The notes beneath the pieces were generated by a model that made no database searches, had not been told where the DNA came from, and saw only the letters and a program-made list of their open reading frames with translations. The translations under genes were made by a program, and so were the position numbers. A stretch of 32,000 nt of DNA from Bermanella sp. WJH001. Its GTDB lineage: Bacteria; Pseudomonadota; Gammaproteobacteria; Pseudomonadales; Oceanobacteraceae. Location of the stretch: the NCBI RefSeq assembly GCF_030070105.2, contig NZ_CP194951.1:1038453-1070452 (forward strand), written 5' to 3'. Positions 14,421-29,187 of the stretch are shown here, in pieces (within the stretch, counting starts at the first letter, position 1; each line of letters opens with the position of its first letter).

Positions 14421-15771
14421 ATCCTTAAATTGGCTAAAACAAACAGGTGAGTATCAATGTCAGCCAGTGGTATCGGGGCAATTAACCAGAATGGTTGGCC
14501 TGACAATGGAAGCGGTTGGCTGCAAAGTAAAAGTAGGGGATCGTTGCTGGGTCGAACAAGGGCGAGAAAATATCGAAGCAGAAGTGGTGGGGTTTGACCG
14601 CGAAAAATTCTTTTTAATGCCAATCGAACCGGTGCAAGGTTTATCACCCGGAGCAAAAGTCACCCCGATTCTTGATGGCGATCAAATTCCCGCAGGGTTT
14701 GGTTTATTAGGACGCGTTTTAAATGGCGCAGGAAGGCCGCTTGATGGTCTTGGTGATATTGTCAGTAATGAATACATCAGCCTTGAAGGCAAAATCATCA
14801 ACCCTATGCAGCGTGCCCCCATACGCGAAACCATGGATGTGGGAATACGGGCCATCAATGCACTTTTAACCGTGGGGCGTGGTCAACGCATGGGATTATT
14901 TGCAGGCTCTGGTGTGGGTAAAAGTATGTTACTGGGTATGATGACCCGCTTTACCACCGCCGACATTGTAGTCGTGGGTTTGGTGGGGGAGCGTGGCCGA
15001 GAAGTACAAGAATTCATTCAAGATATACATGGTGAAGAAGGCTTAAAGCGCGCAGTGGTTGTAGCCAGCCCTGCTGATGACTCCCCTATCATGCGTATGC
15101 GTGCCGCCTCATTAAGCACCGCGATAGCGGAATATTTTCGTGATGAAGGCAAAGATGTTTTATTGTTAATGGACAGTTTAACTCGTTATGGCCAAGCACA
15201 ACGGGAAGTGGCATTAGCGGTGGGTGAACCCCCAGCCACAAAAGGGTATCCACCTTCTGTATTTGCTAAAATTCCTAAATTAGTTGAGCGAACTGGCAAT
15301 GGGCCACCAGGTGGTGGCTCAATTACCGCATTTTATACGGTGCTCACAGAAGGCGATGACCTGCAAGACCCCATTGCCGATTCGGCGCGGGCGATACTAG
15401 ATGGTCACGTGGTATTAAGTCGCCGTTTAGCAGAAGAAGGCCAATACCCAGCCATTGATGTGGAGGCATCCATTAGCCGAGCCATGCCACAAATTGTAGA
15501 TGCTGTGACCTTGAAATCAGCTCAGCGATTTAAGTACCTCTATAGCTTGTATCAACAAAACAAAGATTTAATCAGCGTGGGTGCCTATAACCCAGGAAGC
15601 AACCCAGAGCTAGATCTAGCTGTGCGATTGAATCCCGTGATGAAAGCCTATTTGGCCCAAGACTTAAATCAATCACTGAGCCTTAAAGAGAGTATGGAAG
15701 GCTTAACCATGATATTAAACGAAGCATTAGGACGGCGAGCTGAACCACAAGGAGCACCTGAAGCGCAATGA
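14410..15771 (+). CDS. fliI: Flagellum-specific ATPase FliI
   Basis: Walker A 'GSGVGKS', Walker B 'VLLLMDSLTR' and F1-ATPase-like sequence throughout. The ORF opens at 14383. The ATGs at 14401, 14404 and 14410 follow AAGGA at 14396-14400, so the exact start is uncertain. It overlaps the fliH 3' end. Confidence 0.93.
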
Positions 15772-16217
15772 GTCGTGAACGTGCCAAACGATTAAAACCC
15801 CTTGTTCAGATTGCACAAAATGCCGTGAATGAAGCCCTTTCATACATTGGTGCACTGCAACAAAAGCTGCGCAGTGAAGAAGAGAAAAGTCAGACCCTAT
15901 TAGGGTATCAGCAAGACTACCGAGTCAATTTTCAAAACCAAGCCAGCATCAAGGTATCCGGATTACAGATTCAACAATTTGAATCATTTATGCACCAAAT
16001 AGACGATGCCATTGCCCAGCAAAACAACCACATCTTCCAAGTAAAAGAACAACTCAAAAAAGCACAGGGCATTTATCAAACCCTCAACCAAAAATTAAAG
16101 AGTTATGAAAAGTTAGAAACTCGACTTAATGATCAGGCAATAGCGTCAGAAAACCAACAGATGCAGAAATTTTTAGATGAAATTGGTGCACAACTTCATC
16201 GTCTTCATAGCTCATAA
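15768..16217 (+). CDS. fliJ: Flagellar export chaperone FliJ
   Basis: 149-aa coiled-coil protein with an ATGA overlap to the fliI stop, and synteny. Confidence 0.85.
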   Translation: MSRERAKRLKPLVQIAQNAVNEALSYIGALQQKLRSEEEKSQTLLGYQQDYRVNFQNQASIKVSGLQIQQFESFMHQIDDAIAQQNNHIFQVKEQLKKAQGIYQTLNQKLKSYEKLETRLNDQAIASENQQMQKFLDEIGAQLHRLHSS

Positions 16218-16307
16218 TTATTAACAAAAAAAACTTTCTGCCGCCCCCAACATTCCATGTATTACCGTCTAACATTATCAATAAATGAGCTAAAGGCTGT
16301 ACACATC

Positions 16308-16589
16308 ATGGAAATGGATAAGATTGACTTGGGTACGCGCTGTACCATAGTCAAAGCAGAGGAACTGCACGGGCAAATGGAAGGCTTGATTCAATCTGGC
16401 AATGACATCGAAATACAATCTGCTGGTATCGAGCAAATTGACACATCTGCTTTACAACTTCTTCTTAGTTTTCATCAAGCATTGGCTAAAGATAACCGAA
16501 AATTATCTTGGCCAAATCCATCAGAGCAAACAGTTGCCACAGCTAAGCTATTGGGTGTTGATGAATATATTGGATTAAGTGGACACTAA
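16308..16589 (+). CDS. Small STAS-domain protein (anti-sigma-antagonist fold), first gene of the chemosensory insert
   Basis: 'IEQIDTSALQLLLSFHQAL' matches the STAS 'D-S/T-S-x-L' helix motif. The ORF opens at 16257, and the ATG at 16308 gives a ~93-aa protein typical of single-domain STAS proteins. Confidence 0.7.
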   Translation: MEMDKIDLGTRCTIVKAEELHGQMEGLIQSGNDIEIQSAGIEQIDTSALQLLLSFHQALAKDNRKLSWPNPSEQTVATAKLLGVDEYIGLSGH

Positions 16590-16605
16590 TTCGGGAGAGC
16601 AATTT

Positions 16606-16968
16606 ATGGCAAAAATATTAGCAGTAGATGATTCAGCTTCCATGCGACAAATGGTGAGTTTTACCCTAAAAGGTGCTGGCCATGATGTGATTGAAGCCAG
16701 TGATGGTGTAGAGGCATTAAACTTTGCAAAAGGGCAAGGTGTCGACCTTGTGCTAAGTGATGTCAATATGCCAAACATGAATGGTATTGAGTTATGCCGT
16801 AATTTACGCGAATTACCAAGCTATAAATTCACGCCAATCTTAATGTTAACCACCGAGTCAGCTGGCGATAAAAAAATGGAAGGTAAAAGCGCAGGAGCGA
16901 CAGGTTGGATCGTTAAACCGTTTAATCCTGATCAGTTGCTTACGACCATCAAGAAAGTATTGGGATAA
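16606..16968 (+). CDS. cheY: CheY-like single-domain response regulator
   Basis: 'KILAVDDSASMR', 'LVLSDVNMPNMNG', 'MLTTES' and 'GWIVKPF' are the CheY signature residues. GGGAGAG lies upstream of the ATG at 16606; the ORF track's GTG at 16579 is unlikely. Confidence 0.9.
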   Translation: MAKILAVDDSASMRQMVSFTLKGAGHDVIEASDGVEALNFAKGQGVDLVLSDVNMPNMNGIELCRNLRELPSYKFTPILMLTTESAGDKKMEGKSAGATGWIVKPFNPDQLLTTIKKVLG

Positions 16969-16971
16969 ATC

Positions 16972-19113
16972 ATGAGTATTGATCTTAGTCAGTTCCACCA
17001 AGTATTTTACGAAGAGAGTTATGAAGGCCTTGATGCAATGGAGCAAGGCTTACTTGACTTAGACTTGGTAGAACCGGACGCTGAAGTCATCAATACTATT
17101 TTTCGTGCAGCGCATTCAATGAAAGGCGGTGCAGGCACCTTTGGTTTTACCCAGGTGGCTGATTTTACTCATGTGCTAGAAACGCTACTTGACCAAATAC
17201 GCAGCGGTCAACGGGCCATGAGCCAAGACATTCAAAACTTGTTACTCAAAAGTGTCGATTGCATAAGAGGTTTATTACAAGACCTACAAGCGAGTAATGA
17301 TCCTGATCTTGAAGAAAGCAAGGTCCTAAAGGCGCAATTTGAAGCCATATTAAATGGCGAGGCCCCATCAGTTGTCGAGCCTCCACAGCCCCCATCCGAT
17401 ATCCCAAAAGCTGAAAAAAATAGTGAAGCTGGCGGCTGGCATATTCGATTTATACCTGAACTGTCTATCTTACAAACCGGTAACGAACCCACACGAATGT
17501 TCCGTCAACTTGCAGACCTATGTGATAGCAATATGCAAGTGATTGCCGGTACCGAACGGGTGCCTGAATTTACCAGTTTGGACCCTGAACTGTGTTATTT
17601 AACATGGGATATTCGAATTGAAAAATCCATTTCAAAAGCAGACATAGAAGAAGTTTTTGAATGGGTAGCAGATGATGCCGAAATCATTATTACGCCGTTA
17701 TCAGGCAGTGTTAATGAATCAACCGACACAACAGCAGAAAAACAAACGGCAGAGCCCGACGTTACAGAAGTAGGCATGACAGAACCAGAAGTGGCTGAAT
17801 TGGCACCTGTTACACCACAAACCACAGCGTCATCTAAAACAGAAGCAGCTGTTTCAAAAACGGTAGAGAATCCAGCAAAACCTCAAGCTAAGGCCGCACC
17901 TAAGACGCAAGAGAGTTCATCTATCCGCGTGAGTATCGATAAGGTAGATAGCTTAATTAATATGGTGGGGGAATTAGTCATAACCCAATCTATGTTAGGA
18001 CAGCTTGGGCAAAACTTTGATATTACTCGTGTTCAGCGCTTACAAGAGGGCTTGGCACAACTTGAACATAACACTCGTGAGTTACAAGAAAGTGTTATGA
18101 AAATTCGTATGATGCCAATTAGTTTTGTCTTCAGTCGTTTTCCTCGTTTAGTTCGTGATGTGAGTATCTCTTTAGATAAAAAAATAGAACTGCTTATGTC
18201 TGGTGAAAATACCGAGCTTGATAAGACCGTAATGGAGAAAATTGGTGACCCAATGGTTCACTTGATTCGTAATTCCATTGACCATGGTATCGAAATGCCC
18301 GCAGATAGAATAGCGGCAGGTAAGCCAGAAACAGGCACCGTAAAATTAGATGCTTATCATCAAAGTGGCAATATTGTCATTGAAATTAAAGACGACGGTG
18401 CGGGCCTCAATACAGATCGAATTTTAACAAAAGCCATGGAAAAAGGTTTGGTTGCCGAAGGTGCAAATTTAAGTCAAGAACAGATATTCGACCTAATTTT
18501 TCAACCTGGTTTTTCAACGGCGGATGTTGTCAGTGATTTATCGGGCCGTGGCGTAGGCATGGATGTGGTGCGCAGAAACATTGCAGCTTTAAATGGCTCA
18601 ATTGAAGTGTCATCGGAGCGTGGGCGCGGTTCTCGCTTTGTCATAAGGCTGCCTCTGACCTTGGCAATTCTAGATGGACAACTGGTCAAAGTTGGAGAAG
18701 AAATTTATATCTTCCCACTGGTGAGCATTGTGGAATCGATCCAGTTAGATGATCGCGCAATCAATCATGTTGGTGGGCACAGCGATGTTCTGCAACTGCG
18801 CGATGAGTATGTGCCGATTGTTGAGCTTGACGAAGTATTTAATATTGATAAAGAAAAACGATCCATCGAAGAAAGCATTATTGTGGTGGTTGAAACAGAT
18901 GGTGAAAAAATCGGCGTTGTGGTGGATGAGTTGTTAGGGCAACAGCAAGTGGTTATCAAAAGCTTAGAAGAAAACTACAAGCGAGTAGATGGTATTTCAG
19001 GTGCGACCATACTAGGTGATGGAACAGTCGCATTAATTGTCGATGTGAGCAGCTTGTCAAAAATGAGCGGTGCATCATCTAGAATAATTGACGGTGGCCA
19101 TAAAGCCGCATAA
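16972..19113 (+). CDS. cheA: Chemotaxis histidine kinase CheA
   Basis: P1 Hpt 'AAHSMKGGAGTFG', P3 'IRVSIDKVDSLINMVGELVI', P4 N-box 'HLIRNSIDHGIE', G1 'DDGAGL', G2 'GRGVGMD', and a C-terminal CheW-like P5. Confidence 0.95.
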   Translation: MSIDLSQFHQVFYEESYEGLDAMEQGLLDLDLVEPDAEVINTIFRAAHSMKGGAGTFGFTQVADFTHVLETLLDQIRSGQRAMSQDIQNLLLKSVDCIRGLLQDLQASNDPDLEESKVLKAQFEAILNGEAPSVVEPPQPPSDIPKAEKNSEAGGWHIRFIPELSILQTGNEPTRMFRQLADLCDSNMQVIAGTERVPEFTSLDPELCYLTWDIRIEKSISKADIEEVFEWVADDAEIIITPLSGSVNESTDTTAEKQTAEPDVTEVGMTEPEVAELAPVTPQTTASSKTEAAVSKTVENPAKPQAKAAPKTQESSSIRVSIDKVDSLINMVGELVITQSMLGQLGQNFDITRVQRLQEGLAQLEHNTRELQESVMKIRMMPISFVFSRFPRLVRDVSISLDKKIELLMSGENTELDKTVMEKIGDPMVHLIRNSIDHGIEMPADRIAAGKPETGTVKLDAYHQSGNIVIEIKDDGAGLNTDRILTKAMEKGLVAEGANLSQEQIFDLIFQPGFSTADVVSDLSGRGVGMDVVRRNIAALNGSIEVSSERGRGSRFVIRLPLTLAILDGQLVKVGEEIYIFPLVSIVESIQLDDRAINHVGGHSDVLQLRDEYVPIVELDEVFNIDKEKRSIEESIIVVVETDGEKIGVVVDELLGQQQVVIKSLEENYKRVDGISGATILGDGTVALIVDVSSLSKMSGASSRIIDGGHKAA

Positions 19114-19619
19114 TGGAAGCCGATGCTATGACTGCAGTTAGTGAAATGGAAGAAAGTCAAAAAATTGGATCGGAAGACGGTGTTTTAACCGAGCAGTATC
19201 TGACTTTTATAATGGCTGATGAAGAATATGGTGTTGATATTCTTGCCGTTCAAGAAATTAGGGGTTGGGAGTCTGCGACCCCAGTACCTAACAGTCCAAA
19301 TTATTTAAAGGGGGTCATAAATTTACGCGGCACAATTGTCCCGATTATGGATTTACGCTTACGATTTGATCTTCCTAAGATTGAATACGGAGAAGAAACC
19401 GTTGTCGTTGTTTTAAAGATATTCACATCAACCGGAACTCGGACAATGGGAATAATTGTTGATGCCATAAGTGATGTCTATGACGTACCCATTGGTGAAG
19501 CAAAAAACAAAGGACTTGGTGATAACCAGAATTCAAATTTTATAAAAGGATTGGTAACCGTGAAAAAAAACATGGTGATTCTATTAGAACTTGAAAATCT
19601 TTTAACGATTGATGATTAG
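19113..19619 (+). CDS. cheW: Coupling protein CheW
   Basis: 'YLTFIMADEEYGVDILAVQEIR' and 'GVINLRGTIVPIMDLR' are the CheW signature. It overlaps the cheA stop by 1 nt. Confidence 0.92.
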   Translation: MEADAMTAVSEMEESQKIGSEDGVLTEQYLTFIMADEEYGVDILAVQEIRGWESATPVPNSPNYLKGVINLRGTIVPIMDLRLRFDLPKIEYGEETVVVVLKIFTSTGTRTMGIIVDAISDVYDVPIGEAKNKGLGDNQNSNFIKGLVTVKKNMVILLELENLLTIDD

Positions 19620-19631
19620 GTGGAAATAAAA

Positions 19632-22600
19632 ATGGATAGTTTGAGCCGGATGAGCATACAGTATAAATTTATCATGCCTTGGGTGTTGCCACTGATAGGG
19701 CTGGTATATGCCTTTATATCAATACCCCAAGAGCAAGCAGGGAATGCTCTCATTATACTGAGTTTATTATGTGCGGCTGGGCTCATTGCTCATTGGATGC
19801 AAGCCCATAAACTATTGACGGTTTTATTACTGGCAACCCGTAGCGCAAATGCCACCGCAAACGGTGATTATGGTTATGAACCCACAACCAAAGGTAAGGA
19901 TGAATTAGCCAAGCTTATTTATACCATGGTGAATTTACGTAATAGTGTTAAGTCTATTGCATCCAGTAGTGCTGATCTTGATAGTTCTAACTTGAAAGAA
20001 GACACAGAGAAAGTTGCGGCCATCGATAAGGTTCAAGCAATAATTGAATTCAATATGGATGGAACCATAATTACCGCAAACAAAAATTTCTTAGGAGCCG
20101 TCGGTTATTCATTAGAAGAGATACAGGGTAAGCACCATAGTATTTTTGTAGACTCAGAATTTAAAGCTAGCAATGAATATCAAGATTTCTGGAGAAAGCT
20201 CAATAATGGTGAGTTTGAATCTGCAGAATATAAGCGTGTAGGGAAAGGCGGAAAAGAAATTTGGATTCAAGCATCTTATAACCCAATTATTGGGAAAGAT
20301 GGTAAACCTTATAAAGTCATTAAATTTGCAACGGATATTACGCAGCAAAAAATTGATAATATATCTAATACTCGTATCAGAAGAGCTTTAGATTCATGCG
20401 CCGAGTCATGTTTAATGGTTGCGGATGAAAATTACGATCTTGTATATACCAATAAAGGTGTACAAGACATGTTTATCACGGCAGAGTCGGATATTAAGAA
20501 AAGTATTCCAAGCTTCTCTGTGGATAATGTTCTTGGTAAAAATATTGATATTTTCCACAAAGATCCAAGTTATCAGCGTTCAATGCTAGATAAATTATCA
20601 GACACATACAAAACCAAACTTGAGTTAGGAGATCGTACATTCTCATTGATCGTGAACCCAATATTAAGTGAAGAGGGTGCTCGCATTGGAACGGTAGTAG
20701 AGTGGACCGATAAAACAGAAGAAATTGCTCGTACCGAAAAAGAAGAAAAAATATCTGCCGAAAATGCTCGTACTCGCAGCGCGTTAGATGTGTGTCAGGC
20801 TAATGTGATGATGGCTGATGAAAACTTAAATATTGTTTATTTAAATAATTCGGTACGTGAAATGCTCACCGAGGCTCAGCCTGATATTAAGAAAGACTTA
20901 CCAAGCTTTGACGTCAGTAAATTAATGGGCTTTAACGTGGATGGTTTCCATAAAAACCCGGCTCATCAGCGTGGCATGCTAGCGGATTTAAAAGATGTTT
21001 ATAACACTAAAATTGTGGTGGGCGGTCGCACCTTTGATTTAGTGGCCACACCTGTTTGGCAAGATCAAAAACGTCTGGGCACGGTTGTTGAGTGGAAAGA
21101 CTTGACCGATCAACTTGCATTTGAAGCAGAACAAAAGCGTATTTCTGATGAAAATACACGTGTACGTTTAGCGCTTGATGCTTGTTCAGCGAATACGATG
21201 ATTGCCGATAATGATCAAAATGTGATTTACACCAATGAAGCGGTTTCAGGCATGTTGCGCATTGCTGAATCGGATGTACGCAAAGACCTACCTAACTTTA
21301 CCGCAAGTAAAGTATTGGGTAGTAATATTGATATTTTCCATAAAAATCCGGCACATCAACGTCAAATGTTATCAGCATTAAAAGATACCTATCGTACTCA
21401 GATTGTAGTGGGTGGTCGTACATTCTCCTTGATTGCCAACCCTATTATTAACCCAGAGGGTGAGCGATTAGGCACGGTTGTTGAGTGGAATGACCGTACT
21501 GAAGAAGTGGCGGTTGAACGTGAAGTGGATAACATTATTGAGTCAGCTGGTAAGGGCGAATTAAGTTTACGTGCCACGGTTGAAGATAAGAGTGGTTTCT
21601 TTAAAAATCTTTGCATGGGATTAAACAGCTTAATGACCATTTCGGAAAACGTCATTAATGATACAGCCCGTGTTTTAGATGCCATGGCACACGGTAAATT
21701 AGACGAACGCATTGAAGCAGATTATCAAGGTATTTTTGGCAAGCTTAAACAAGATGCCAATGATACGGGAGAGCGTTTAACAGATGTCATCGGTCGAATC
21801 CGCGAATCTGCAAATACCGTCAGTACCGGCTCCACTGAAATCGCACAAGGTAATACTGACTTAAGTCAACGTACCGAAGAGCAAGCCTCTAGCTTGGAAG
21901 AGACGGCATCCAGTATGGAAGAAATGACCAGCTCTGTTCGTCAAACCAGCGAAAATGCCTCTCATGCAAATAACCTAGCTGCCAATGCTCAAGAGAAAGC
22001 GCAAAAAGGTGGCGAGGTTGTGAGTAAAGCCGTTGGCGCAATGGAAGAAATTAACACCTCAAGTAAGAAAATTTCAGACATCATTGGTGTGATAGACGAA
22101 ATTGCATTCCAAACTAACCTACTCGCATTAAATGCTGCAGTAGAAGCAGCCAGAGCCGGTGAGCAAGGCAAAGGCTTTGCAGTGGTGGCAGGTGAGGTTA
22201 GAAACTTAGCACAGCGCAGTGCTGGGGCGGCAAAAGAAATTAAAGACTTAATTCGCGATAGTGTTGAAAAAGTCGATAATGGTACTGACCTTGTTAACAA
22301 ATCGGGACAAACTCTAGCAGAAATTGTAGAAGCCGTTGAAAAAGTTAACACCATGATTAAAGAAATCAGTTCAGCCTCTGAAGAGCAAGCCAGTGGTATA
22401 GAGCAAGTAAACAAAGCCATTAGCCAAATGGATGAAATGACTCAGCAAAATGCTGCTCTAGTAGAAGAAGCATCTGCGGCCAGTGAAACCATGACCGAGC
22501 AAGCCAAAAACATGCTGGATCTCGTGGGTTTCTTTAAAGTGGCTTCGGGTTCTGATACTCATAATCCTATGGGGCATCAGTCAGCTATGATGAGTCACTC

Positions 22601-22712
22601 ATCTAAGCCTTCTCAATCAAAATCAAGCGCGTCATCTACACAAATCCATAAACCGACTACGGCAAGTCGACCTGTGGTAAAAGATGACGACGACGATTGG
22701 CAAGAATTTTAG
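19632..22712 (+). CDS. Methyl-accepting chemotaxis protein: TM hairpin-HAMP-PAS-(Aer2-like PAS)x3-HAMP-MA domain-tether-DWQEF
   Basis: MCP hairpin tip '[42 protein letters not shown]'. Two hydrophobic segments lie at residues ~17-34 and 42-59 with a 7-aa loop. There are four PAS-like modules. The ORF opens at a GTG at 19620, but the ATG at 19632 follows AGGTGGA. Confidence 0.93.
20370..21512 (+). repeat. Three tandem diverged copies (~390-400 bp period) encoding paralogous PAS domains within the MCP
   Basis: Copies at ~20370-20729, 20769-21119 and 21159-21512. They share blocks R-x-R-x-ALD-x-C, 'KDLP.F', 'FHK(N/D)P..QR.ML', 'GGRTF.L' and 'GTVVEW.D.T'. Roughly half the residues are identical between copies 2 and 3, by eye. 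Confidence 0.9.
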
Positions 22713-22726
22713 AGAAGTAATGTACT

Positions 22727-23551
22727 ATGGATTTCTCGGGTAAGGAATTCCCAATGGCTGATGAGGACTTTAAACGCCTCTCAGCCAAGGCTTACGAAAT
22801 CAGTGGCATCGTATTGGGAGATCAAAAAAAAGAATTAGTTTATAGTCGTATATCCAGACGCATTAGAAAACTAGGTCTTAAAAATTTCTCTGAGTACTGC
22901 CAGCATTTAGAAGCGAATCATACTGCTGAAGTAAATGAATTTGTTAATTCAATTACAACAAACCTAACGTCATTCTTTCGTGAATCTCATCATTTTGAGT
23001 ATTTAGCAAAAGAAATCATACCGCATTGGAAAAAGCAAAATAAGTCGATCCCCATTCGTATATGGTCATCGGCTTGCTCTACCGGTCCTGAGCCATACAG
23101 TATTGCAATCACTTTGCATAAAAACATGATGGTCAAACAACATAATATTAAAATATTAGCAACCGACTTAGATAGTGATGTTTTAAAAAAAGGTCGTGAA
23201 GGCATTTACCCTCTTACCGAAATTGAGCAATTACCGAAAGACTACCTGTCTTGTTTTCAGCAGAATGCAACAACGGGTATGGGAATGGTAAAGCCTGAAA
23301 TAAAAGAAATGATTCAATTTAATCGCTTAAATTTGCTTGGCCCTTGGCCAATGAATGCAAAATTTGATGTGATATTTTGTCGTAATGTGGTGATTTATTT
23401 TAATAAAGAAACCCAAAAAGAATTATTTGAACGTTTAGCAGATCAGCTTAACGATGGTGGTTATTTATTTATAGGTCATAGTGAAACACTGCACGGTATG
23501 ACCTCTCGGTTTGAGTCTAAAGGCCGAACTATTTATAAAAAGATAAGGTGA
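22727..23551 (+). CDS. cheR: Chemotaxis protein methyltransferase CheR
   Basis: 'TNLTSFFRESHHF', 'RIWSSACSTGPEPYSIA', 'DVIFCRNVVIYF' and 'LFIGHSE' motifs. An alternative start at 22754 is preceded by TAAGGA. Confidence 0.93.
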   Translation: MDFSGKEFPMADEDFKRLSAKAYEISGIVLGDQKKELVYSRISRRIRKLGLKNFSEYCQHLEANHTAEVNEFVNSITTNLTSFFRESHHFEYLAKEIIPHWKKQNKSIPIRIWSSACSTGPEPYSIAITLHKNMMVKQHNIKILATDLDSDVLKKGREGIYPLTEIEQLPKDYLSCFQQNATTGMGMVKPEIKEMIQFNRLNLLGPWPMNAKFDVIFCRNVVIYFNKETQKELFERLADQLNDGGYLFIGHSETLHGMTSRFESKGRTIYKKIR

Positions 23552-23555
23552 TTAC

Positions 23556-24197
23556 ATGGCACATAATCCACTGAATCAGCCACCTGCTGAAAAAGGGTTT
23601 GAGCATGTTAATCGCTATTTTGATCCAAAGATAAATGTATGGTCAGCAAAAATATTGCCAGGTGAATTTTATGTTACCACTCATGGCGAAATGATTGGCA
23701 CGGTTTTGGGTTCTTGTATCAGTGCTTGTGTGCGAGATGTCACACTAGGTATAGGTGGTATGAACCATTTTATGCTGCCCATTCAAAACGAGCATAGTTC
23801 AGCGCAGTGGGGCAGCGATGCCAATACGTCTGAGACTCGTTATGGCAATTGGGCCATGGAGTATTTATTGAATACGCTTTATAAAATGGGTTGTACGAAG
23901 CGAAATCTAGAAGTGAAGTTATTTGGTGGCGGACAAGTACTTGCCAGTATGACGGATATCGGGCAAAGAAACATATTATTTGCGTACGATTTTTTACGCA
24001 AAGAAGGCATCAATGTAAAAGCTGCCGATGTAGGTGATGTTTATTCGAGAAAAATACTTTATTTTCCCGATACCGGATGTGTGAAAGTAAGGCGCATTAC
24101 AACCACGAAAAATGAAACCATTATCGAGCGCGAAAAGGGCTACCTGGATTCTATCAGGCAGCATAAAGATGACTCTGATATTGAACTATTTGATTAA
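23556..24197 (+). CDS. cheD: Chemoreceptor glutamine deamidase CheD
   Basis: 'ILPGEFYVT', 'TVLGSCISACVRD', 'GGMNHFMLP' and 'VKLFGGG' are the CheD signature. The position between cheR and cheB matches Che2/F7 clusters. Confidence 0.88.
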   Translation: MAHNPLNQPPAEKGFEHVNRYFDPKINVWSAKILPGEFYVTTHGEMIGTVLGSCISACVRDVTLGIGGMNHFMLPIQNEHSSAQWGSDANTSETRYGNWAMEYLLNTLYKMGCTKRNLEVKLFGGGQVLASMTDIGQRNILFAYDFLRKEGINVKAADVGDVYSRKILYFPDTGCVKVRRITTTKNETIIEREKGYLDSIRQHKDDSDIELFD

Positions 24198-24209
24198 CAA
24201 GGGTGGATC

Positions 24210-25268
24210 ATGATTAAAGTGCTGATCGTAGATGATTCAATCTTAATACGAAAAGTTTTAACACAGATATTATCTGATCAGGCGGATATCCAAGTAGTGG
24301 GTACGGCGGCTGATCCCTATATTGCTAGGGATAAAATTAAAGCCCTCAATCCAGATGTCATTACGCTTGATATTGAAATGCCTAAAATGGACGGTATTAC
24401 CTTTTTGCGTAACCTAATGCGCTTAAGGCCTTTGCCGGTTGTGATGATTTCCACACTCACACAAAAAGGTGCACCATCAACATTAGAAGCGTTGGAAATC
24501 GGAGCCGTAGATTATATCGGTAAACCCAGTGCCGATAAGCCTGAATTGTTAAGTGAATATGCCTCAGAAATCATAGAAAAAGTGAAAATGGCGTCGGTCG
24601 CCAACGTGAGTCGCCTAGAGGTTCAGGCCAATAGAACACCGCCAAAAGTGATTAAACCTATTGAAAAACAAGGTTTGAATCGAGACGGTTTAATTGTGAT
24701 TGGCGCTTCCACCGGAGGCACTGAAGCCATTAGGGAGCTGCTGTGCATGTTGCCAGTGGACACCCCACCAATCGTCATCACTCAACATATACCGCCGGTG
24801 TTCAGTGCATCATTTGCTAAGCGAATTAATGGCATGATTCAGCAAGAAGTCAGTGAAGCACAAGATGGCGATAAGATTATGCCAGGACATATTTATATCG
24901 CCCCTGGTGACAAGCAATTTGAAGTTGTGCAAAAAGGTGGTCACTTCTACTGTAAAGTGTATGACGGTGAACGGGTCAATTTACATAAACCGTCGGTAGA
25001 GGTTTTATTTGACTCGATTAGCCGTAACCCGCAACTGGCAAAACGCTCCATTGGCATTATGCTCACAGGAATGGGGGCAGATGGAGCACAAGCCATGCTG
25101 AGAATGAAGCAAGCGGGTTGTTATAATATTGTGCAAGATAAAGAAAGTTCAGTTGTTTGGGGAATGCCTGGTGCCGCGGTTGATTGTGGCGCGGCAGATA
25201 AGGTTTTACCACTTAATCACATTGCAGCCCATGTGGTATCACATTTAAAAAAGGGAATTAAGCGTTAA
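24210..25268 (+). CDS. cheB: Chemotaxis response regulator protein-glutamate methylesterase CheB
   Basis: REC domain ('VITLDIEMPKMDG') plus an esterase domain ('IGASTGGTEA', 'ITQHIP', 'MLTGMGADGA'). Confidence 0.95.
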   Translation: MIKVLIVDDSILIRKVLTQILSDQADIQVVGTAADPYIARDKIKALNPDVITLDIEMPKMDGITFLRNLMRLRPLPVVMISTLTQKGAPSTLEALEIGAVDYIGKPSADKPELLSEYASEIIEKVKMASVANVSRLEVQANRTPPKVIKPIEKQGLNRDGLIVIGASTGGTEAIRELLCMLPVDTPPIVITQHIPPVFSASFAKRINGMIQQEVSEAQDGDKIMPGHIYIAPGDKQFEVVQKGGHFYCKVYDGERVNLHKPSVEVLFDSISRNPQLAKRSIGIMLTGMGADGAQAMLRMKQAGCYNIVQDKESSVVWGMPGAAVDCGAADKVLPLNHIAAHVVSHLKKGIKR

Positions 25269-25346
25269 ATTTTACTAAATTATTTTTTTTGAACTATGCT
25301 CAAAATATGCAGTACAACTCTACGCCAAGGAAATAAGAGGTTTGAC

Positions 25347-25646
25347 ATGCCGGTAAATGCTTCGATTAAAGGTGATGAATTGACCGTCACCGTGGAAGGG
25401 CGCTTTGACTTTAGTGCACATCAAGAATTCCGTGATGCTTATGAAGATGCGGGGGCAGGTGTGAGTAAATACGTGATAGATATGTCTAAGGCTTCATATT
25501 TAGACAGCTCCGCACTTGGTATGCTTTTATTGCTGCGTGATCATGCCGGTGGTGAGAGCTCAAATGTGCGTATTACACGTTGCAATGCCGATGTGAAAAA
25601 AATTCTAACCATTTCGAATTTTGAGCAACTCTTTACTATCGATTAG
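25347..25646 (+). CDS. STAS-domain anti-sigma-factor antagonist (HsbA/SpoIIAA-like)
   Basis: 'ASYLDSSALGMLLLL' is the phosphorylatable DSS-x-LG motif, with serines at residues 54-55 counted from the ATG at 25347. AAGAGG precedes that ATG. The ORF opens at 25296. Confidence 0.8.
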   Translation: MPVNASIKGDELTVTVEGRFDFSAHQEFRDAYEDAGAGVSKYVIDMSKASYLDSSALGMLLLLRDHAGGESSNVRITRCNADVKKILTISNFEQLFTID

Positions 25647-25667
25647 CGGTAAGGTCTGAGGTCAGTT

Positions 25668-27383
25668 ATGGATGAAAGACCGCTACATGTATTAGTGGCA
25701 GATGATAACCAATCTGATCGAATGATACTGTGTGCCATCGTTAAAAAAATGGGCTACACCGTATGTGAAGCCGCTGATGGTAATGAAGCCATCGACCAAT
25801 TTTTAGAACAAAAACCTGACATCATCTTACTTGATGTGATTATGCCCAATTTAAATGGGCAACAAGCCGCTAAGACAATCAAGACCCTAGCGGGAGAAGA
25901 TATGGTTCCTATTATCTTCTTAACCTCTCTACAAGAAGCGTCTGACTTAGCCGCCTGCTTAGAAAGTGGTGGCGATGATTTTATTTCTAAGCCTTATAAT
26001 AAAATCATTCTGCAAGCAAAAATCAATGCTTTTAGTCGCATGCTGAAAATGCACACAACCTTGCAAACTCAGCGTGATTTAATCCGCGAAAATAATGAAC
26101 ATATGCGTCACGAGCAGCAAGTTGCAAGAGCTGTATATGATAATGTGGCACACAGTGGCTGTTTAGATCTACCCAACATTAAGCACTTGTTATCTCCTTT
26201 TTCTATTTTTAATGGTGATGTTCTTTTAGCTGCGCGCAAGCCTTCAGGCAGTATTCATATTTTATTAGGTGACTTTACCGGACACGGTCTGCCTGCTGCT
26301 ATTGGGGCGATGCCACTTGCTGAAATATTTTATGGTATGACGGCAAAAGGTTTTTTTATGTCGGATATTCTTCGAGAGATTAATATCAAATTAAAAAAAA
26401 TCTTACCAGTGGGTTACTTTTGCTGTACCTGTATGGCCAATATGAGTTTTAGACGCAACGAAATTGAAGTGTGGATGGGCGGATTACCAGATTTTGGCTT
26501 GTATCGTAAAAACACAGGTCAAGTTGAGCGAATTAAATCCAACCATTTACCTTTAGGGGTTTTGTCATCCCAAGCCTTTGATGCAGAAACCAAAACATTT
26601 GACTTCTTACCTGGTGATAAATTCTACATGTGGTCAGATGGTATCATTGAAGCCCGTAATTCTGATGGTGAACTGTTTGGCGATGAACGATTATTTTCGG
26701 TTTTTGATAATAAAAATAGCGATGACTATTTTGATAATATTCTAAAAAGTGTTAATCAATTTGTTGGTGAAAATGGCCGAGACGATGATACAACGTTATT
26801 AGAGTTGTCTATGGTTGATGAGTCTGAGATCGGTAGAGTGGATATTGATCTCTCAAGTGGTGCCATTAGTGGCCCCACAAATTGGAATATGATTTATACC
26901 CTAAGAGACGAAACCCTAAAGTCGTTTAATCCTTTGCCTATTATGCTAAACATTTTAAATGATGTGCCGGCATTACGGCGTTTAAGTGGGCAATTGTATA
27001 CCCTAATGGCCGAGTTATTTTCTAATGCGTTTGAGCATGGTGTGCTTGGATTAAGTTCGGAACTTAAAAAAACCGCCGATGGTTTTGCCGAATATTATCG
27101 TTTACGCAGTTGCGCGATGGAGTCTTTAGAGAATGCGTTTGTTAAATTTGATTTTGATCTGACCCCGACCAAAGATGGCGGTAAGCTGACCATCATTGTA
27201 GAAGATAGTGGGGAAGGTTTTGATTATGATAATGATAACTTCGACTCAAATATTGATGAAAATGTCGCATATTCTGGCCGAGGTATTCCACTGATTTATA
27301 GTTTATGCGATAGTCTCACCTATCTTGATAAGGGTAATAAAGTCAAAGTTTGCCTATCATGGAAATCCCCGATTGAGGAGTAG
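25668..27383 (+). CDS. Three-domain REC - PP2C (SpoIIE-type) phosphatase - RsbW-like HATPase serine kinase (HsbR-like partner-switch regulator)
   Basis: REC domain 'VLVADDN...IILLDVIMPNLNG...SKPY'. PP2C motifs 'GDFTGHGLPAA', 'WSDGIIEA' and 'GRDDDTTLLEL'. C-terminal kinase N-box 'ELFSNAFEHG', G1 'EDSGEGFD' and G2 'SGRGIPL'. Confidence 0.85.
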   Translation: MDERPLHVLVADDNQSDRMILCAIVKKMGYTVCEAADGNEAIDQFLEQKPDIILLDVIMPNLNGQQAAKTIKTLAGEDMVPIIFLTSLQEASDLAACLESGGDDFISKPYNKIILQAKINAFSRMLKMHTTLQTQRDLIRENNEHMRHEQQVARAVYDNVAHSGCLDLPNIKHLLSPFSIFNGDVLLAARKPSGSIHILLGDFTGHGLPAAIGAMPLAEIFYGMTAKGFFMSDILREINIKLKKILPVGYFCCTCMANMSFRRNEIEVWMGGLPDFGLYRKNTGQVERIKSNHLPLGVLSSQAFDAETKTFDFLPGDKFYMWSDGIIEARNSDGELFGDERLFSVFDNKNSDDYFDNILKSVNQFVGENGRDDDTTLLELSMVDESEIGRVDIDLSSGAISGPTNWNMIYTLRDETLKSFNPLPIMLNILNDVPALRRLSGQLYTLMAELFSNAFEHGVLGLSSELKKTADGFAEYYRLRSCAMESLENAFVKFDFDLTPTKDGGKLTIIVEDSGEGFDYDNDNFDSNIDENVAYSGRGIPLIYSLCDSLTYLDKGNKVKVCLSWKSPIEE

Positions 27384-27388
27384 GTAGT

Positions 27389-27721
27389 ATGTCCCATTTA
27401 AATATGGAGCAAATTCAAGAATTAAAAGACATTATGGAAGAAGGCTTTAATGATCTTGTCTTAACCTATTTACATGATAGCGAAGTAAAACTGACGGCAT
27501 TAAAAGCGGCCATTCAATCCTCAAAGAGTGAGCAGGTTGCTGAAATTGCTCACAGCTTAAAAGGCTCTAGTGCCAATATCTATGCTGAGTCCTTATCTGC
27601 ACTGTTCAAAAAAGTTGAGGATTCAGGTCGCTCGCAAACATTACAAGATGTACCGTATGTGTTTGAGAAAATAGAAGAAGAATTCTCACACGTTAAAACT
27701 CAACTGCAACAATTACAGTAA
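27389..27721 (+). CDS. Stand-alone histidine phosphotransfer (Hpt) protein (HptB-like)
   Basis: 'VAEIAHSLKGSSANIYAESL' is the Hpt active-site helix. It is 110 aa and starts 5 nt after the preceding gene, with GAGGAG upstream. Confidence 0.85.
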   Translation: MSHLNMEQIQELKDIMEEGFNDLVLTYLHDSEVKLTALKAAIQSSKSEQVAEIAHSLKGSSANIYAESLSALFKKVEDSGRSQTLQDVPYVFEKIEEEFSHVKTQLQQLQ

Positions 27722-27748: not shown

Positions 27749-27783
27749 AATTCTTTATATCAAAGAATTAATTGGGTCATGTT

Positions 27784-29187
27784 ATGCCAGTATCTCCGCT
27801 ATTTTCACTTGTGTCACCCGTCACACCAAGTAATACAAATGGGCCTTTGTCTCAATCAGGCGCGAACAATAATGGGGTTTTAAGCCCCATATCAAGCACA
27901 AATACAGACTCTTCTGACCTTTCTCAAGGTCAAACGACGTTAAGTTTTTTTGAACAACTACAAGTGGCAAATGATCTAAATAATTTGCCACTTGGGCAAG
28001 AATTTGCCGCTTATTTGCCGCACGTATCGGTCGATGAAGAAAGCCCGATGACGCAGCTGAATACTGATTTTGTAGGGCCATTAACTCCCTTAACATTAGA
28101 GCATACCCATAACACGGACGATGCCAGTGGAATTTTATACAGCCCAATAAATCAAGCCGTAACGCTGGATAGCACGCAAGTAGAAACACCTGAAGGACTA
28201 CAATATCTTGAAAGCTTGCGACGAGCGCAACCCCATATCCAGTCTCAAGGGGCATTAAGTTCTAACATGACACAAGAGGATCTGGTTGAGGGTAATTTAG
28301 ATACCCAAGCTCAAGTTAAACTCGTGCAGTCCGAACTCTCTGCAAGACAGGCACATATCCCTGAAGCGGCTGCGAAAATAGTGGACCCAAATCTTCAGGC
28401 TGTGAATCCTGCTATTGCGATGAATGCACAAAATAATAAAGCGATTAATCTCGACGAACTGTCAATGGATGTATTAACAGAAGAGATCACTTTAGATGAG
28501 GCCAGTTTAGATGGCATGCACTTAGAATCAGAATCGATACATGACCAGCCAAAAACATTAACAGCGTTAAAAGAAAACAGCATGGTGAATGTTTCGGTGA
28601 ATCAAGAAAGTAGCGCGTTACCTGACGCTAAGCTTAATGGAATGGAAACCATCACAGCAGGGTTAAAAGAATCAGCGGCTACAAAATCCATGGCCTTAGA
28701 TCAGGGCGACGGTGTTAAAACGCAAACACTAACCGCAGAAAAATTGGCCAGTCACTTTAATAAATTAGATGTGCCACCTCAAAGTCCACAATGGAATGAT
28801 CAGGTGGCAAAACGAATTAGCATCATGGCCAGTGAAAGTGTGCAAAGTGCCCGCATCCAGTTGGACCCTCCAGAATTAGGCTCTTTAGAAATTAAAGTCA
28901 AAGTGCAAAACGATCAGGTAAGTGTGGCATTTGGCAGTAATAACCAAATGGTGCGCGATGCATTAGAAAGTCAAACCCCACGCCTTCGTGAGTTGCTAGA
29001 GCAGCAGGGTGTGGATTTAGCCGATGTGAATGTCTCTGAACAAGGCCGAGATCAAAATGGTCAAGATTCAAATGAAGCACTTACACAAGGGGGTGATCAA
29101 GAGGGCGACGCAATAGGAGCTGATCCGTTGACTGACCAAGAGATCCAAACCTTTGAAAGCGATGCTTTAGTGGATTACTTCGCTTAA
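27784..29187 (+). CDS. fliK: Flagellar hook-length control protein FliK
   Basis: The C-terminal domain 'ARIQLDPPELGSLEIKVKVQNDQVSVAFGSNNQMVRDALESQTPRLRELLEQQGVDLADVNV' is the FliK signature, and the N-terminal region is Q/S/N/T-rich and looks disordered. The ORF opens at a TTG at 27772. Confidence 0.9.
   Translation: MPVSPLFSLVSPVTPSNTNGPLSQSGANNNGVLSPISSTNTDSSDLSQGQTTLSFFEQLQVANDLNNLPLGQEFAAYLPHVSVDEESPMTQLNTDFVGPLTPLTLEHTHNTDDASGILYSPINQAVTLDSTQVETPEGLQYLESLRRAQPHIQSQGALSSNMTQEDLVEGNLDTQAQVKLVQSELSARQAHIPEAAAKIVDPNLQAVNPAIAMNAQNNKAINLDELSMDVLTEEITLDEASLDGMHLESESIHDQPKTLTALKENSMVNVSVNQESSALPDAKLNGMETITAGLKESAATKSMALDQGDGVKTQTLTAEKLASHFNKLDVPPQSPQWNDQVAKRISIMASESVQSARIQLDPPELGSLEIKVKVQNDQVSVAFGSNNQMVRDALESQTPRLRELLEQQGVDLADVNVSEQGRDQNGQDSNEALTQGGDQEGDAIGADPLTDQEIQTFESDALVDYFA

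Follow-up and report, generated by a model that had tools for sequence, protein, structure and literature searches.

A chemoreceptor gene of Bermanella sp. WJH001 contains three PAS domains in series, each with the histidine and tryptophan pattern of the heme-binding Aer2 receptors, which raises the question of whether the protein is an Aer2 receptor and what three such domains in a row would do. The gene lies in the 32,000-nucleotide stretch analysed here, referred to as the window (contig NZ_CP194951.1, positions 1,038,453 to 1,070,452). It very probably encodes the only Aer2-family chemoreceptor of its host, composed of a transmembrane (TM) hairpin, a HAMP domain, a non-heme PAS domain, three Aer2-type PAS domains, a di-HAMP unit, a kinase-control domain of Tsr length and a DWQEF tether; signalling via heme and O2 is deduced from homology. 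The receptor is an ordinary member of the known Aer2 family, three-domain representatives of which were characterised in 2022. Residue numbers are counted throughout from the GTG codon at 19620 (1030 amino acids); with a start at ATG 19632 each of them is lowered by 4, and the nucleotide coordinates are unchanged.

An earlier note on this DNA had proposed three tandem Aer2-like PAS domains at 20370-21512, each with FHK(N/D)P and WxDxT motifs, and alignment to the PAS domain of Pseudomonas aeruginosa Aer2 (PaAer2) bears this out. A motif scan of the receptor placed FHK[ND]P at residues 312, 443 and 573 and WxDxT at 362, 492 and 623, the DxT contexts reading WTDKT, WKDLT and WNDRT from the first repeat to the third. 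The repeats are about 130 residues long, with a period of 390–393 nucleotides in the DNA, and share 48–57% identity in pairwise comparison. Their alignment to PaAer2 173-289 is almost gapless (one column); H313, H444 and H574 fall on His234, W362, W492 and W623 on Trp283, L343, L474 and L604 on Leu264, and the DxT motifs on D285-x-T287. The His/Trp pairs H313 (20556-20558)/W362 (20703-20705), H444/W492 and H574/W623 were found at the nucleotides given in the earlier note, and its spacings of 49, 48 and 49 residues were reproduced. A tyrosine precedes the tryptophan by 32, 31 and 32 residues in repeats 1–3. The heme-ligand His, the Gβ-Tyr, the Hβ-Leu, the O2-stabilising Trp and the DxT motif are thus present in all three repeats. 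Chance similarity is excluded, because the receptor matches the PaAer2 PAS chains 3VOL and 4HI4 with E values of 2.6e-38 and 1.3e-37 and the Vibrio cholerae Aer2 chain 6CEQ with 8e-15.

The PaAer2 residue numbers were counted along the 4HI4 chain, position 5 of which we take to be residue 173. Counted in this way, His234 and Trp283 are 49 residues apart and followed by a DxT motif, in agreement with the numbers given in the earlier note. The numbering also agrees with the span of 166-287 reported for the PAS domain of PA0176 (PMC8694187).

Within the pattern, PAS-heme 1 reads FHKDPSYQR (20556-20579) where repeats 2 and 3 and PaAer2 read FHKNPAHQR; a Tyr in place of the second His, as in this domain, was found in 43 of 389 homologous domains. 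A recent duplication of the repeats was considered and ruled out: the DNA copies are 60–77% identical over short seeds only, and the repeats belong to three old positional classes, described below.

The full-length receptor was modelled with AlphaFold2 (AF2) using 25 homologues. The model is good for the PAS domains only, the HAMP domains, the coiled coil and the tail being built at low confidence. In each repeat a long Cα/Dα helix is present, the His lies at the end of a short helix, and the last β-strand carries the Trp; these are the hallmarks of Aer2 PAS domains (PMC10107281). The Foldseek matches of the model included 4HI4 (template-modelling score 0.85, root-mean-square deviation 2.4 Å) and 3VOL (0.80), both listed for PAS-heme 3, and 6CEQ (0.79). 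By the PaAer2 alignment, the model and Foldseek, then, the His and Trp of each repeat occupy positions of the heme pocket, as the earlier note had expected of a true Aer2 module.

The part of the protein behind the repeats is also of the Aer2 type. Residues 620-721, which lead from the end of PAS-heme 3 into the di-HAMP unit, align without gaps with positions 129-230 of the PaAer2 PAS-HAMP chain 3VOL (E 1.9e-23). In the signalling domain, EE pairs at 753/754, 760/761, 767/768 and 921/922 are located in Tsr-like methylation helices, and alignment to Tsr 222-310 sets Tsr E391 on E848, with arms of equal length; judged from this alignment, the domain is consistent with the 36-heptad (36H) class. 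The terminal DWQEF fits the Aer2-family motif x-[HFYW]-x2-[HFYW], which tethers CheR2 (PMC7184735), and the tail is conserved among homologues. Stuffle et al. (PMC10107281) defined the "Aer2 core" as a last PAS-heme domain joined directly to a di-HAMP unit and a kinase-control domain; here PAS-heme 3 runs straight into the di-HAMP unit and then into the Tsr-like signalling domain. The receptor is assigned to Aer2 because PAS-heme 3, the di-HAMP unit, the Tsr-length domain and the DWQEF tail occur together, in an F7 chemotaxis cluster and between cheW and cheR.

Table 1. Features of the Aer2-type receptor gene and of the surrounding cluster, in window coordinates.
Feature	Position	Strand	Evidence and remarks
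F7 cluster genes upstream: STAS, CheY, CheA, CheW	16257..19619	+	Pfam
Aer2-type methyl-accepting chemoreceptor gene	19620..22712	+	Open reading frame; Pfam MCPsignal, PAS_4, PAS_8, HAMP_2
TM hairpin (TM1 17-35, TM2 40-58, loop about PQEQ(AGN))	19668..19793	+	Kyte-Doolittle windows 2.13, 1.88
Membrane-proximal HAMP-like segment, residues ~59-113, GDY... motif	19794..19958	+	Pfam HAMP 73-100, E 3.4e-4, 21.3 bits against a cut-off of 25
Classic non-heme PAS/PAC, residues 139-244	20034..20351	+	Pfam PAS_4 6e-20, PAS_9, PAS_3
PAS-heme 1, "first" class	20370..20729	+	H313, Y330, L343, W362, D364-x-T366; 43% identity to PaAer2 PAS; AF2 confidence (pLDDT) about 72-85
PAS-heme 2, "middle" class, copy-number-variable cassette	20766..21119	+	H444, Y461, L474, W492, D494-x-T496; 53% identity to PaAer2 PAS
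PAS-heme 3, "last"/core class	21156..21512	+	H574, Y591, L604, W623, D625-x-T627; 55% identity to PaAer2 PAS
Aer2-type di-HAMP unit, residues ~632-724	21513..21791	+	Pfam HAMP_2 at 658-716
Kinase-control (methyl-accepting signalling) domain, hairpin tip E848	21792..22538	+	Pfam MCPsignal 4e-59
Low-complexity tether ending in DWQEF	22539..22709 (DWQEF 22695-22709)	+	Translation
Genes downstream: CheR, CheD, CheB, STAS, REC-PP2C-HATPase (RsbU/HsbR-like), Hpt	22727..27721	+	Pfam

The GTG at the 5' end of the open reading frame directly abuts the cheW stop codon TAG (19617-19634 region). Because an AGGTGG sits 8 nucleotides before ATG 19632, and because the homologues and the database copy of the receptor begin at MDSL, that is, at the Met of this ATG, the true start is probably ATG 19632, giving a protein of 1026 amino acids.

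The characterised Aer2 receptors differ in their number of PAS-heme domains. PaAer2 has one and the Aer2 proteins of V. cholerae and Shewanella oneidensis have two (PMC10107281, PMC9855816). The one domain of PaAer2 and the two of the V. cholerae protein had been given correctly in the earlier note, but its account was incomplete: the Vibrio vulnificus receptor VvAer2, which is soluble, and the Leptospira interrogans receptor LiAer2, which is membrane-bound, have three each, all of which bind heme b and O2 (PMC10107281). The VvAer2 domains resemble one another in their affinities for O2 and CO; PAS1 can largely be dispensed with, PAS2 has a modulating role, and PAS3, which signals to the di-HAMP unit, supports reversible signalling on its own (PMC10107281). 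Binding of heme b and O2 was seen in all nine Aer2 PAS domains studied, which come from four species and have similar affinities (PMC10107281).

VvAer2 (Stuffle et al. 2022, PMC10107281) and the receptor have in common three PAS-heme domains with Eη-His, Iβ-Trp, Gβ-Tyr and DxT, a di-HAMP unit, a kinase-control domain (of the 36H type in VvAer2 and consistent with that class here), an xWxEF tail and an F7 cluster with CheR, CheD, CheB and RsbU/RsbV-type genes. The Tyr–Trp spacing of the receptor repeats (31–32 residues) equals that of Y119/W151 and Y246/W278 in VvAer2; the Gβ-Tyr is found in all three heme PAS domains of the receptor but only in PAS1 and PAS2 of VvAer2. VvAer2 is soluble and begins with PAS1, whereas the receptor carries a TM hairpin, a HAMP domain and an extra non-heme PAS domain in front, and its cluster contains a single CheW and lacks an McpA-like gene. 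LiAer2 (Orillard & Watts 2022), as far as its description in PMC10107281 goes, is likewise membrane-bound, its three PAS-heme domains leading into a di-HAMP unit and a kinase-control domain; by the same description, the receptor differs from it in having a hairpin without a periplasmic domain and a cytoplasmic HAMP-PAS module. With P. aeruginosa Aer2/McpB (3VOL, 4HI4) and the V. cholerae and S. oneidensis Aer2 (6CEQ) the receptor shares the PAS-heme fold, the pocket, the di-HAMP unit, the pentapeptide and the cheW-cheR position. PaAer2, with its one PAS-heme domain after three HAMPs, and the two-domain V. cholerae and S. oneidensis receptors are all soluble, unlike the receptor studied here.

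From these homologies a mechanism can be sketched. Heme b would be held by the Eη-His of each PAS domain (H313, H444, H574), one per domain, and O2 bound to the ferrous iron would be stabilised by the Iβ-Trp (W362, W492, W623), with the Gβ-Tyr as a possible second donor. Bound O2 would displace the Hβ-Leu, and the change would be relayed via DxT into the helix that follows each PAS domain. By analogy with VvAer2, the last PAS domain (21156-21512) would signal into the di-HAMP unit and the signalling domain, the middle one would modulate the amplitude of the signal, and the first would add little. The output would go to the co-encoded F7 CheA, CheW and CheY, with adaptation via CheR (tethered at DWQEF), CheD and CheB.

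A number of points weigh against this picture. For this protein, heme binding, the preferred ligand and the roles of the individual PAS domains are all drawn from homology. The top NCBIfam match of the receptor, "aerotaxis transducer Aer2" (NF041847), scored 725 bits against a curated cut-off of 1200, which by this measure makes it an Aer2 homologue and not an equivalog of the Vibrio Aer2. The AF2 model is of low overall confidence, with a mean predicted local distance difference test score (pLDDT) of 64, a predicted template-modelling score of 0.30 and pLDDT values of 70–86 in the PAS domains; it is also heme-free, so that the pocket is present as sequence and fold positions only. PAS-heme 1 deviates from the FHKNPAHQR consensus, as described above, and the N-terminal PAS domain of VvAer2 is itself atypical, being easily oxidised and Trp-independent (PMC10107281). 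Finally, F7 systems of stage 1/2 are without an established output (PMC7184735).

How unusual three heme domains are was assessed in a survey of homologues. An HMM (hidden Markov model) of the repeat was applied to the 120 best homologues, in a search whose length filter favours long proteins. The number of Aer2-type PAS domains per protein ranged from 0 to 8 (none in 18 proteins, one in 5, two in 20, three in 20, four in 26, five in 21, six in 3, seven in 7 and eight in 1) and was three or more in 78 of the 120. Among the named homologues above three copies are Shewanella violacea DSS12 (six), Algicola sagamiensis (seven), Pseudoalteromonas sp. C2R02 (five) and Saccharobesus litoralis (four). 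A profile search over 1.84 billion representative proteins gave 1135 proteins at E <= 1e-30; three copies were present in 37 of the best 150 of these, four in 10 and five to seven in 4. The view of the earlier note that three in series would be unusual thus did not hold: VvAer2 and LiAer2 have been characterised, and three is mid-range among the 1–8 copies in the databases. Of the 389 Aer2-type PAS domains of 102 homologues, 381 have the pocket His, 387 the Trp, 371 the Leu, 374 the D and 380 the T, and this holds throughout the arrays, whatever the position of the domain.

Some homologues (P0002, P0006, P0021, P0037, P0039, P0058 and P0100) have 7–8 tandem Aer2-type PAS domains with nearly all of the pocket residues kept, exceeding by more than a factor of two the highest count in the literature that we found. 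No Aer2 receptor with more than three PAS-heme domains turned up in a literature search, and a review of July 2026 gives three as the maximum and repeats the division-of-labour picture of VvAer2. Others (P0011, P0023, P0029, P0032 and P0033) have 8–10 tandem classic, non-heme PAS domains and no Aer2-type PAS domain; many of these end in xWxEF.

The architectures of the homologues are combinatorial, with an optional TM hairpin, 0–8 classic PAS domains and then 1–8 heme PAS domains. The exact layout of the receptor was found in 6 clusters, its two-heme version in 9 and its four-heme version in 4. A tree built from the repeats of close relatives resolves the domains into three positional classes (first, middle and last); the first and last are always present and the middle class occurs 0–3 times, the receptor under study having one middle-class domain. 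Two proteins, P0014 (1026 amino acids) and P0047 (896 amino acids), are about 99% identical and differ by a clean insertion or deletion of a 130-residue middle PAS domain, which has the linker TEQLA-EAEQKRIADENSR at either end. This shared linker suggests that the middle PAS domain is gained or lost by recombination between linkers. The closest named relatives of the locus are L001, with two copies and with flanking proteins that are mostly 77–95% identical, and L055, with four. Because P0014 and P0047 differ by one cassette and L001 and L055 carry two and four heme PAS domains, the number of heme PAS domains is, on the sequences compared, evolutionarily labile.

A tentative generalisation, which we regard as possible but doubtful as a whole, is that the Aer2 family forms a modular series in which the first and last PAS-heme domains are fixed and a middle cassette of 130 amino acids recombines via the inter-PAS linkers, so that a chain would carry between 2 and at least 8 heme domains. 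The copy number would then set either how high the receptor stands in the tall F7 array or the gain with which it responds to O2, and in this lineage the series would be combined with the hairpin, the HAMP domain and a non-heme PAS domain that adds a second input.

The earlier note had suggested that three heme domains in series might act as a cooperative or multi-threshold device, in which differing O2 affinities or coupled binding widen or sharpen the range of the response. All three pockets look intact, the three positional classes are old and distinct, so that functional divergence is possible, and the varying number of middle cassettes in close relatives could tune the response. The only detailed study gives this idea no support, however: the PAS domains of VvAer2 differ little in affinity for O2 and CO, PAS1 can be dispensed with, PAS3 alone signals reversibly, and the affinities were similar in all nine Aer2 PAS domains tested. 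We therefore consider such a device unlikely for the receptor, and prefer the assignment to an O2-responsive Aer2 receptor in which the last PAS domain would generate the signal.

The N-terminal module begins with the TM hairpin. The loop of the hairpin is ~4–7 residues long and there is no periplasmic domain, as had been noticed in the earlier note; the corresponding helices of the AF2 model span residues 13-34 and 40-80. About 30% of the surveyed homologues have two scored TM segments, and about half have one or two. Residues ~59-113 are read as a weak HAMP domain; the segment is of low confidence in the AF2 model, and PF00672 is precomputed for several close homologues. The different, classic PAS domain that the earlier note had placed ahead of the repeats was recovered by Pfam as PAS_4. 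Short putative membrane segments and a HAMP domain ahead of the PAS domain are also present in the Aer2-like receptor of Methylomicrobium alcaliphilum (Ortega et al. 2020, PMC7184735), which has a single Aer2 PAS domain. In Escherichia coli Aer (8DIK), too, a TM hairpin that lacks a periplasmic domain precedes a HAMP domain, and the PAS domain of Aer is distantly similar to the classic PAS domain of the receptor. In Aer, by contrast, the PAS domain precedes the hairpin, binds flavin adenine dinucleotide (FAD) and signals sideways to the HAMP domain, and there are no heme PAS domains and no methylation-dependent adaptation. The hairpin, HAMP domain and non-heme PAS domain together are the only part of the receptor without experimental precedent, and the layout is common in marine gammaproteobacteria.

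The solved structures closest to the classic PAS domain are MmoS PAS-A (3EWK, E 1.3e-11) and the E. coli Aer PAS domain (8DIK, E 1.7e-8), both FAD binders, and FAD binding was considered on account of these matches. The HMMER alignment was interpreted against the structure paper on Aer (PMC9668731), in which N85 and R115 contact the isoalloxazine ring. H53 and W70 of Aer are kept in the receptor as H and W, but N85, R115 and R57 are replaced by R, A and V; FAD binding is thus unsupported, and no flavin is assigned to the domain.

These observations bear on whether the receptor responds to a signal other than O2, such as nitric oxide, carbon monoxide, the redox state of the heme or a flavin-linked redox signal, with several inputs being integrated. 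The likeliest entry points would be the first heme PAS domain, which deviates at two pocket-adjacent positions (FHKDPSY), and the classic PAS domain with its kept H53 and W70 equivalents and its similarity to FAD sensors; the N-terminal PAS domain of VvAer2 oxidises readily, and its authors proposed a role in sensing redox changes or radicals (PMC10107281). Yet O2 triggers signalling in every Aer2 receptor tested, and the replacements at N85, R115 and R57 make flavin binding of the Aer/MmoS type unlikely, and we regard a signal other than O2 as quite improbable. A role of at least one repeat as a degenerate, heme-less spacer that only sets the height of the receptor in the tall F7 array is highly improbable: the extra cytoplasmic layers in F7 arrays do match stacked PAS and HAMP domains, and VvAer2 PAS1 is functionally dispensable, but the five pocket residues are intact in all three repeats, and their retention in more than 95% of the 389 homologous domains at every array position indicates selection on the pocket itself.

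The Aer2 receptor is embedded in a cluster with the order STAS-CheY-CheA-CheW-receptor-CheR-CheD-CheB-STAS-REC/PP2C/HATPase-Hpt. The order CheY-CheA-CheW-receptor-CheR-CheD-CheB is complete in about 50 of 80 homologous loci and partial in most of the others. The cluster resembles the F7 "stage 1" cluster (PMC7184735), in which STAS comes first and STAS and a serine phosphatase come last; compared with the cluster of M. alcaliphilum, that of the window contains a single CheW, lacks an McpA-like receptor and is placed between fliJ and fliK. Its STAS, REC-PP2C-kinase and Hpt genes encode a partner switch, which the F7 CheA and CheY would probably feed and which is a putative route to an output other than motility.

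The F7 cluster and the partner switch together (16257-27721) are flanked by fliJ (15768-16217) and fliK (27772-29187). The cluster also follows fliG-fliJ in loci labelled Oleispira, Thalassolituus, Bermanella, Saccharospirillaceae and, in a metagenome-assembled genome, "Oceanicoccus"; fliK was detected in just the two closest of these loci, and the placement was not seen in the Pseudoalteromonas or Shewanella loci. The genome (3.72 Mb, 2 contigs) encodes 17 signalling domains of methyl-accepting chemotaxis proteins, 3 CheA and one Aer2-type receptor; a six-frame HMM scan of the genome found no second Aer2-type receptor or other Aer2-PAS protein. CheZ and a second CheA, of the F6 type, are encoded about 10 kb downstream of the window (C1:1080098-1082986, L081), and the third CheA, which is very long and ChpA-like, lies at C1:3504642-3511124. 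Because of the CheZ and second CheA, it is presumably a separate F6 system that serves motility and drives the flagellar motor, an arrangement shared with other organisms whose F7 systems belong to stage 1/2. The position in the flagellar locus had suggested that the F7 system might replace the motility system; the same two genes make this unlikely.

The finding in itself adds a further tri-PAS-heme receptor to the Aer2 family, in which three-domain members had already been dissected in 2022, and as such matters little. The natural Aer2 homologues with up to eight intact heme pockets, including near-identical alleles that differ by exactly one cassette, are a ready-made series for studying how a signal passes through stacked PAS domains. 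The TM hairpin in many marine Aer2 receptors bears on how membrane-bound F7 arrays arise from the "soluble" Aer2 proteins of P. aeruginosa and V. cholerae.

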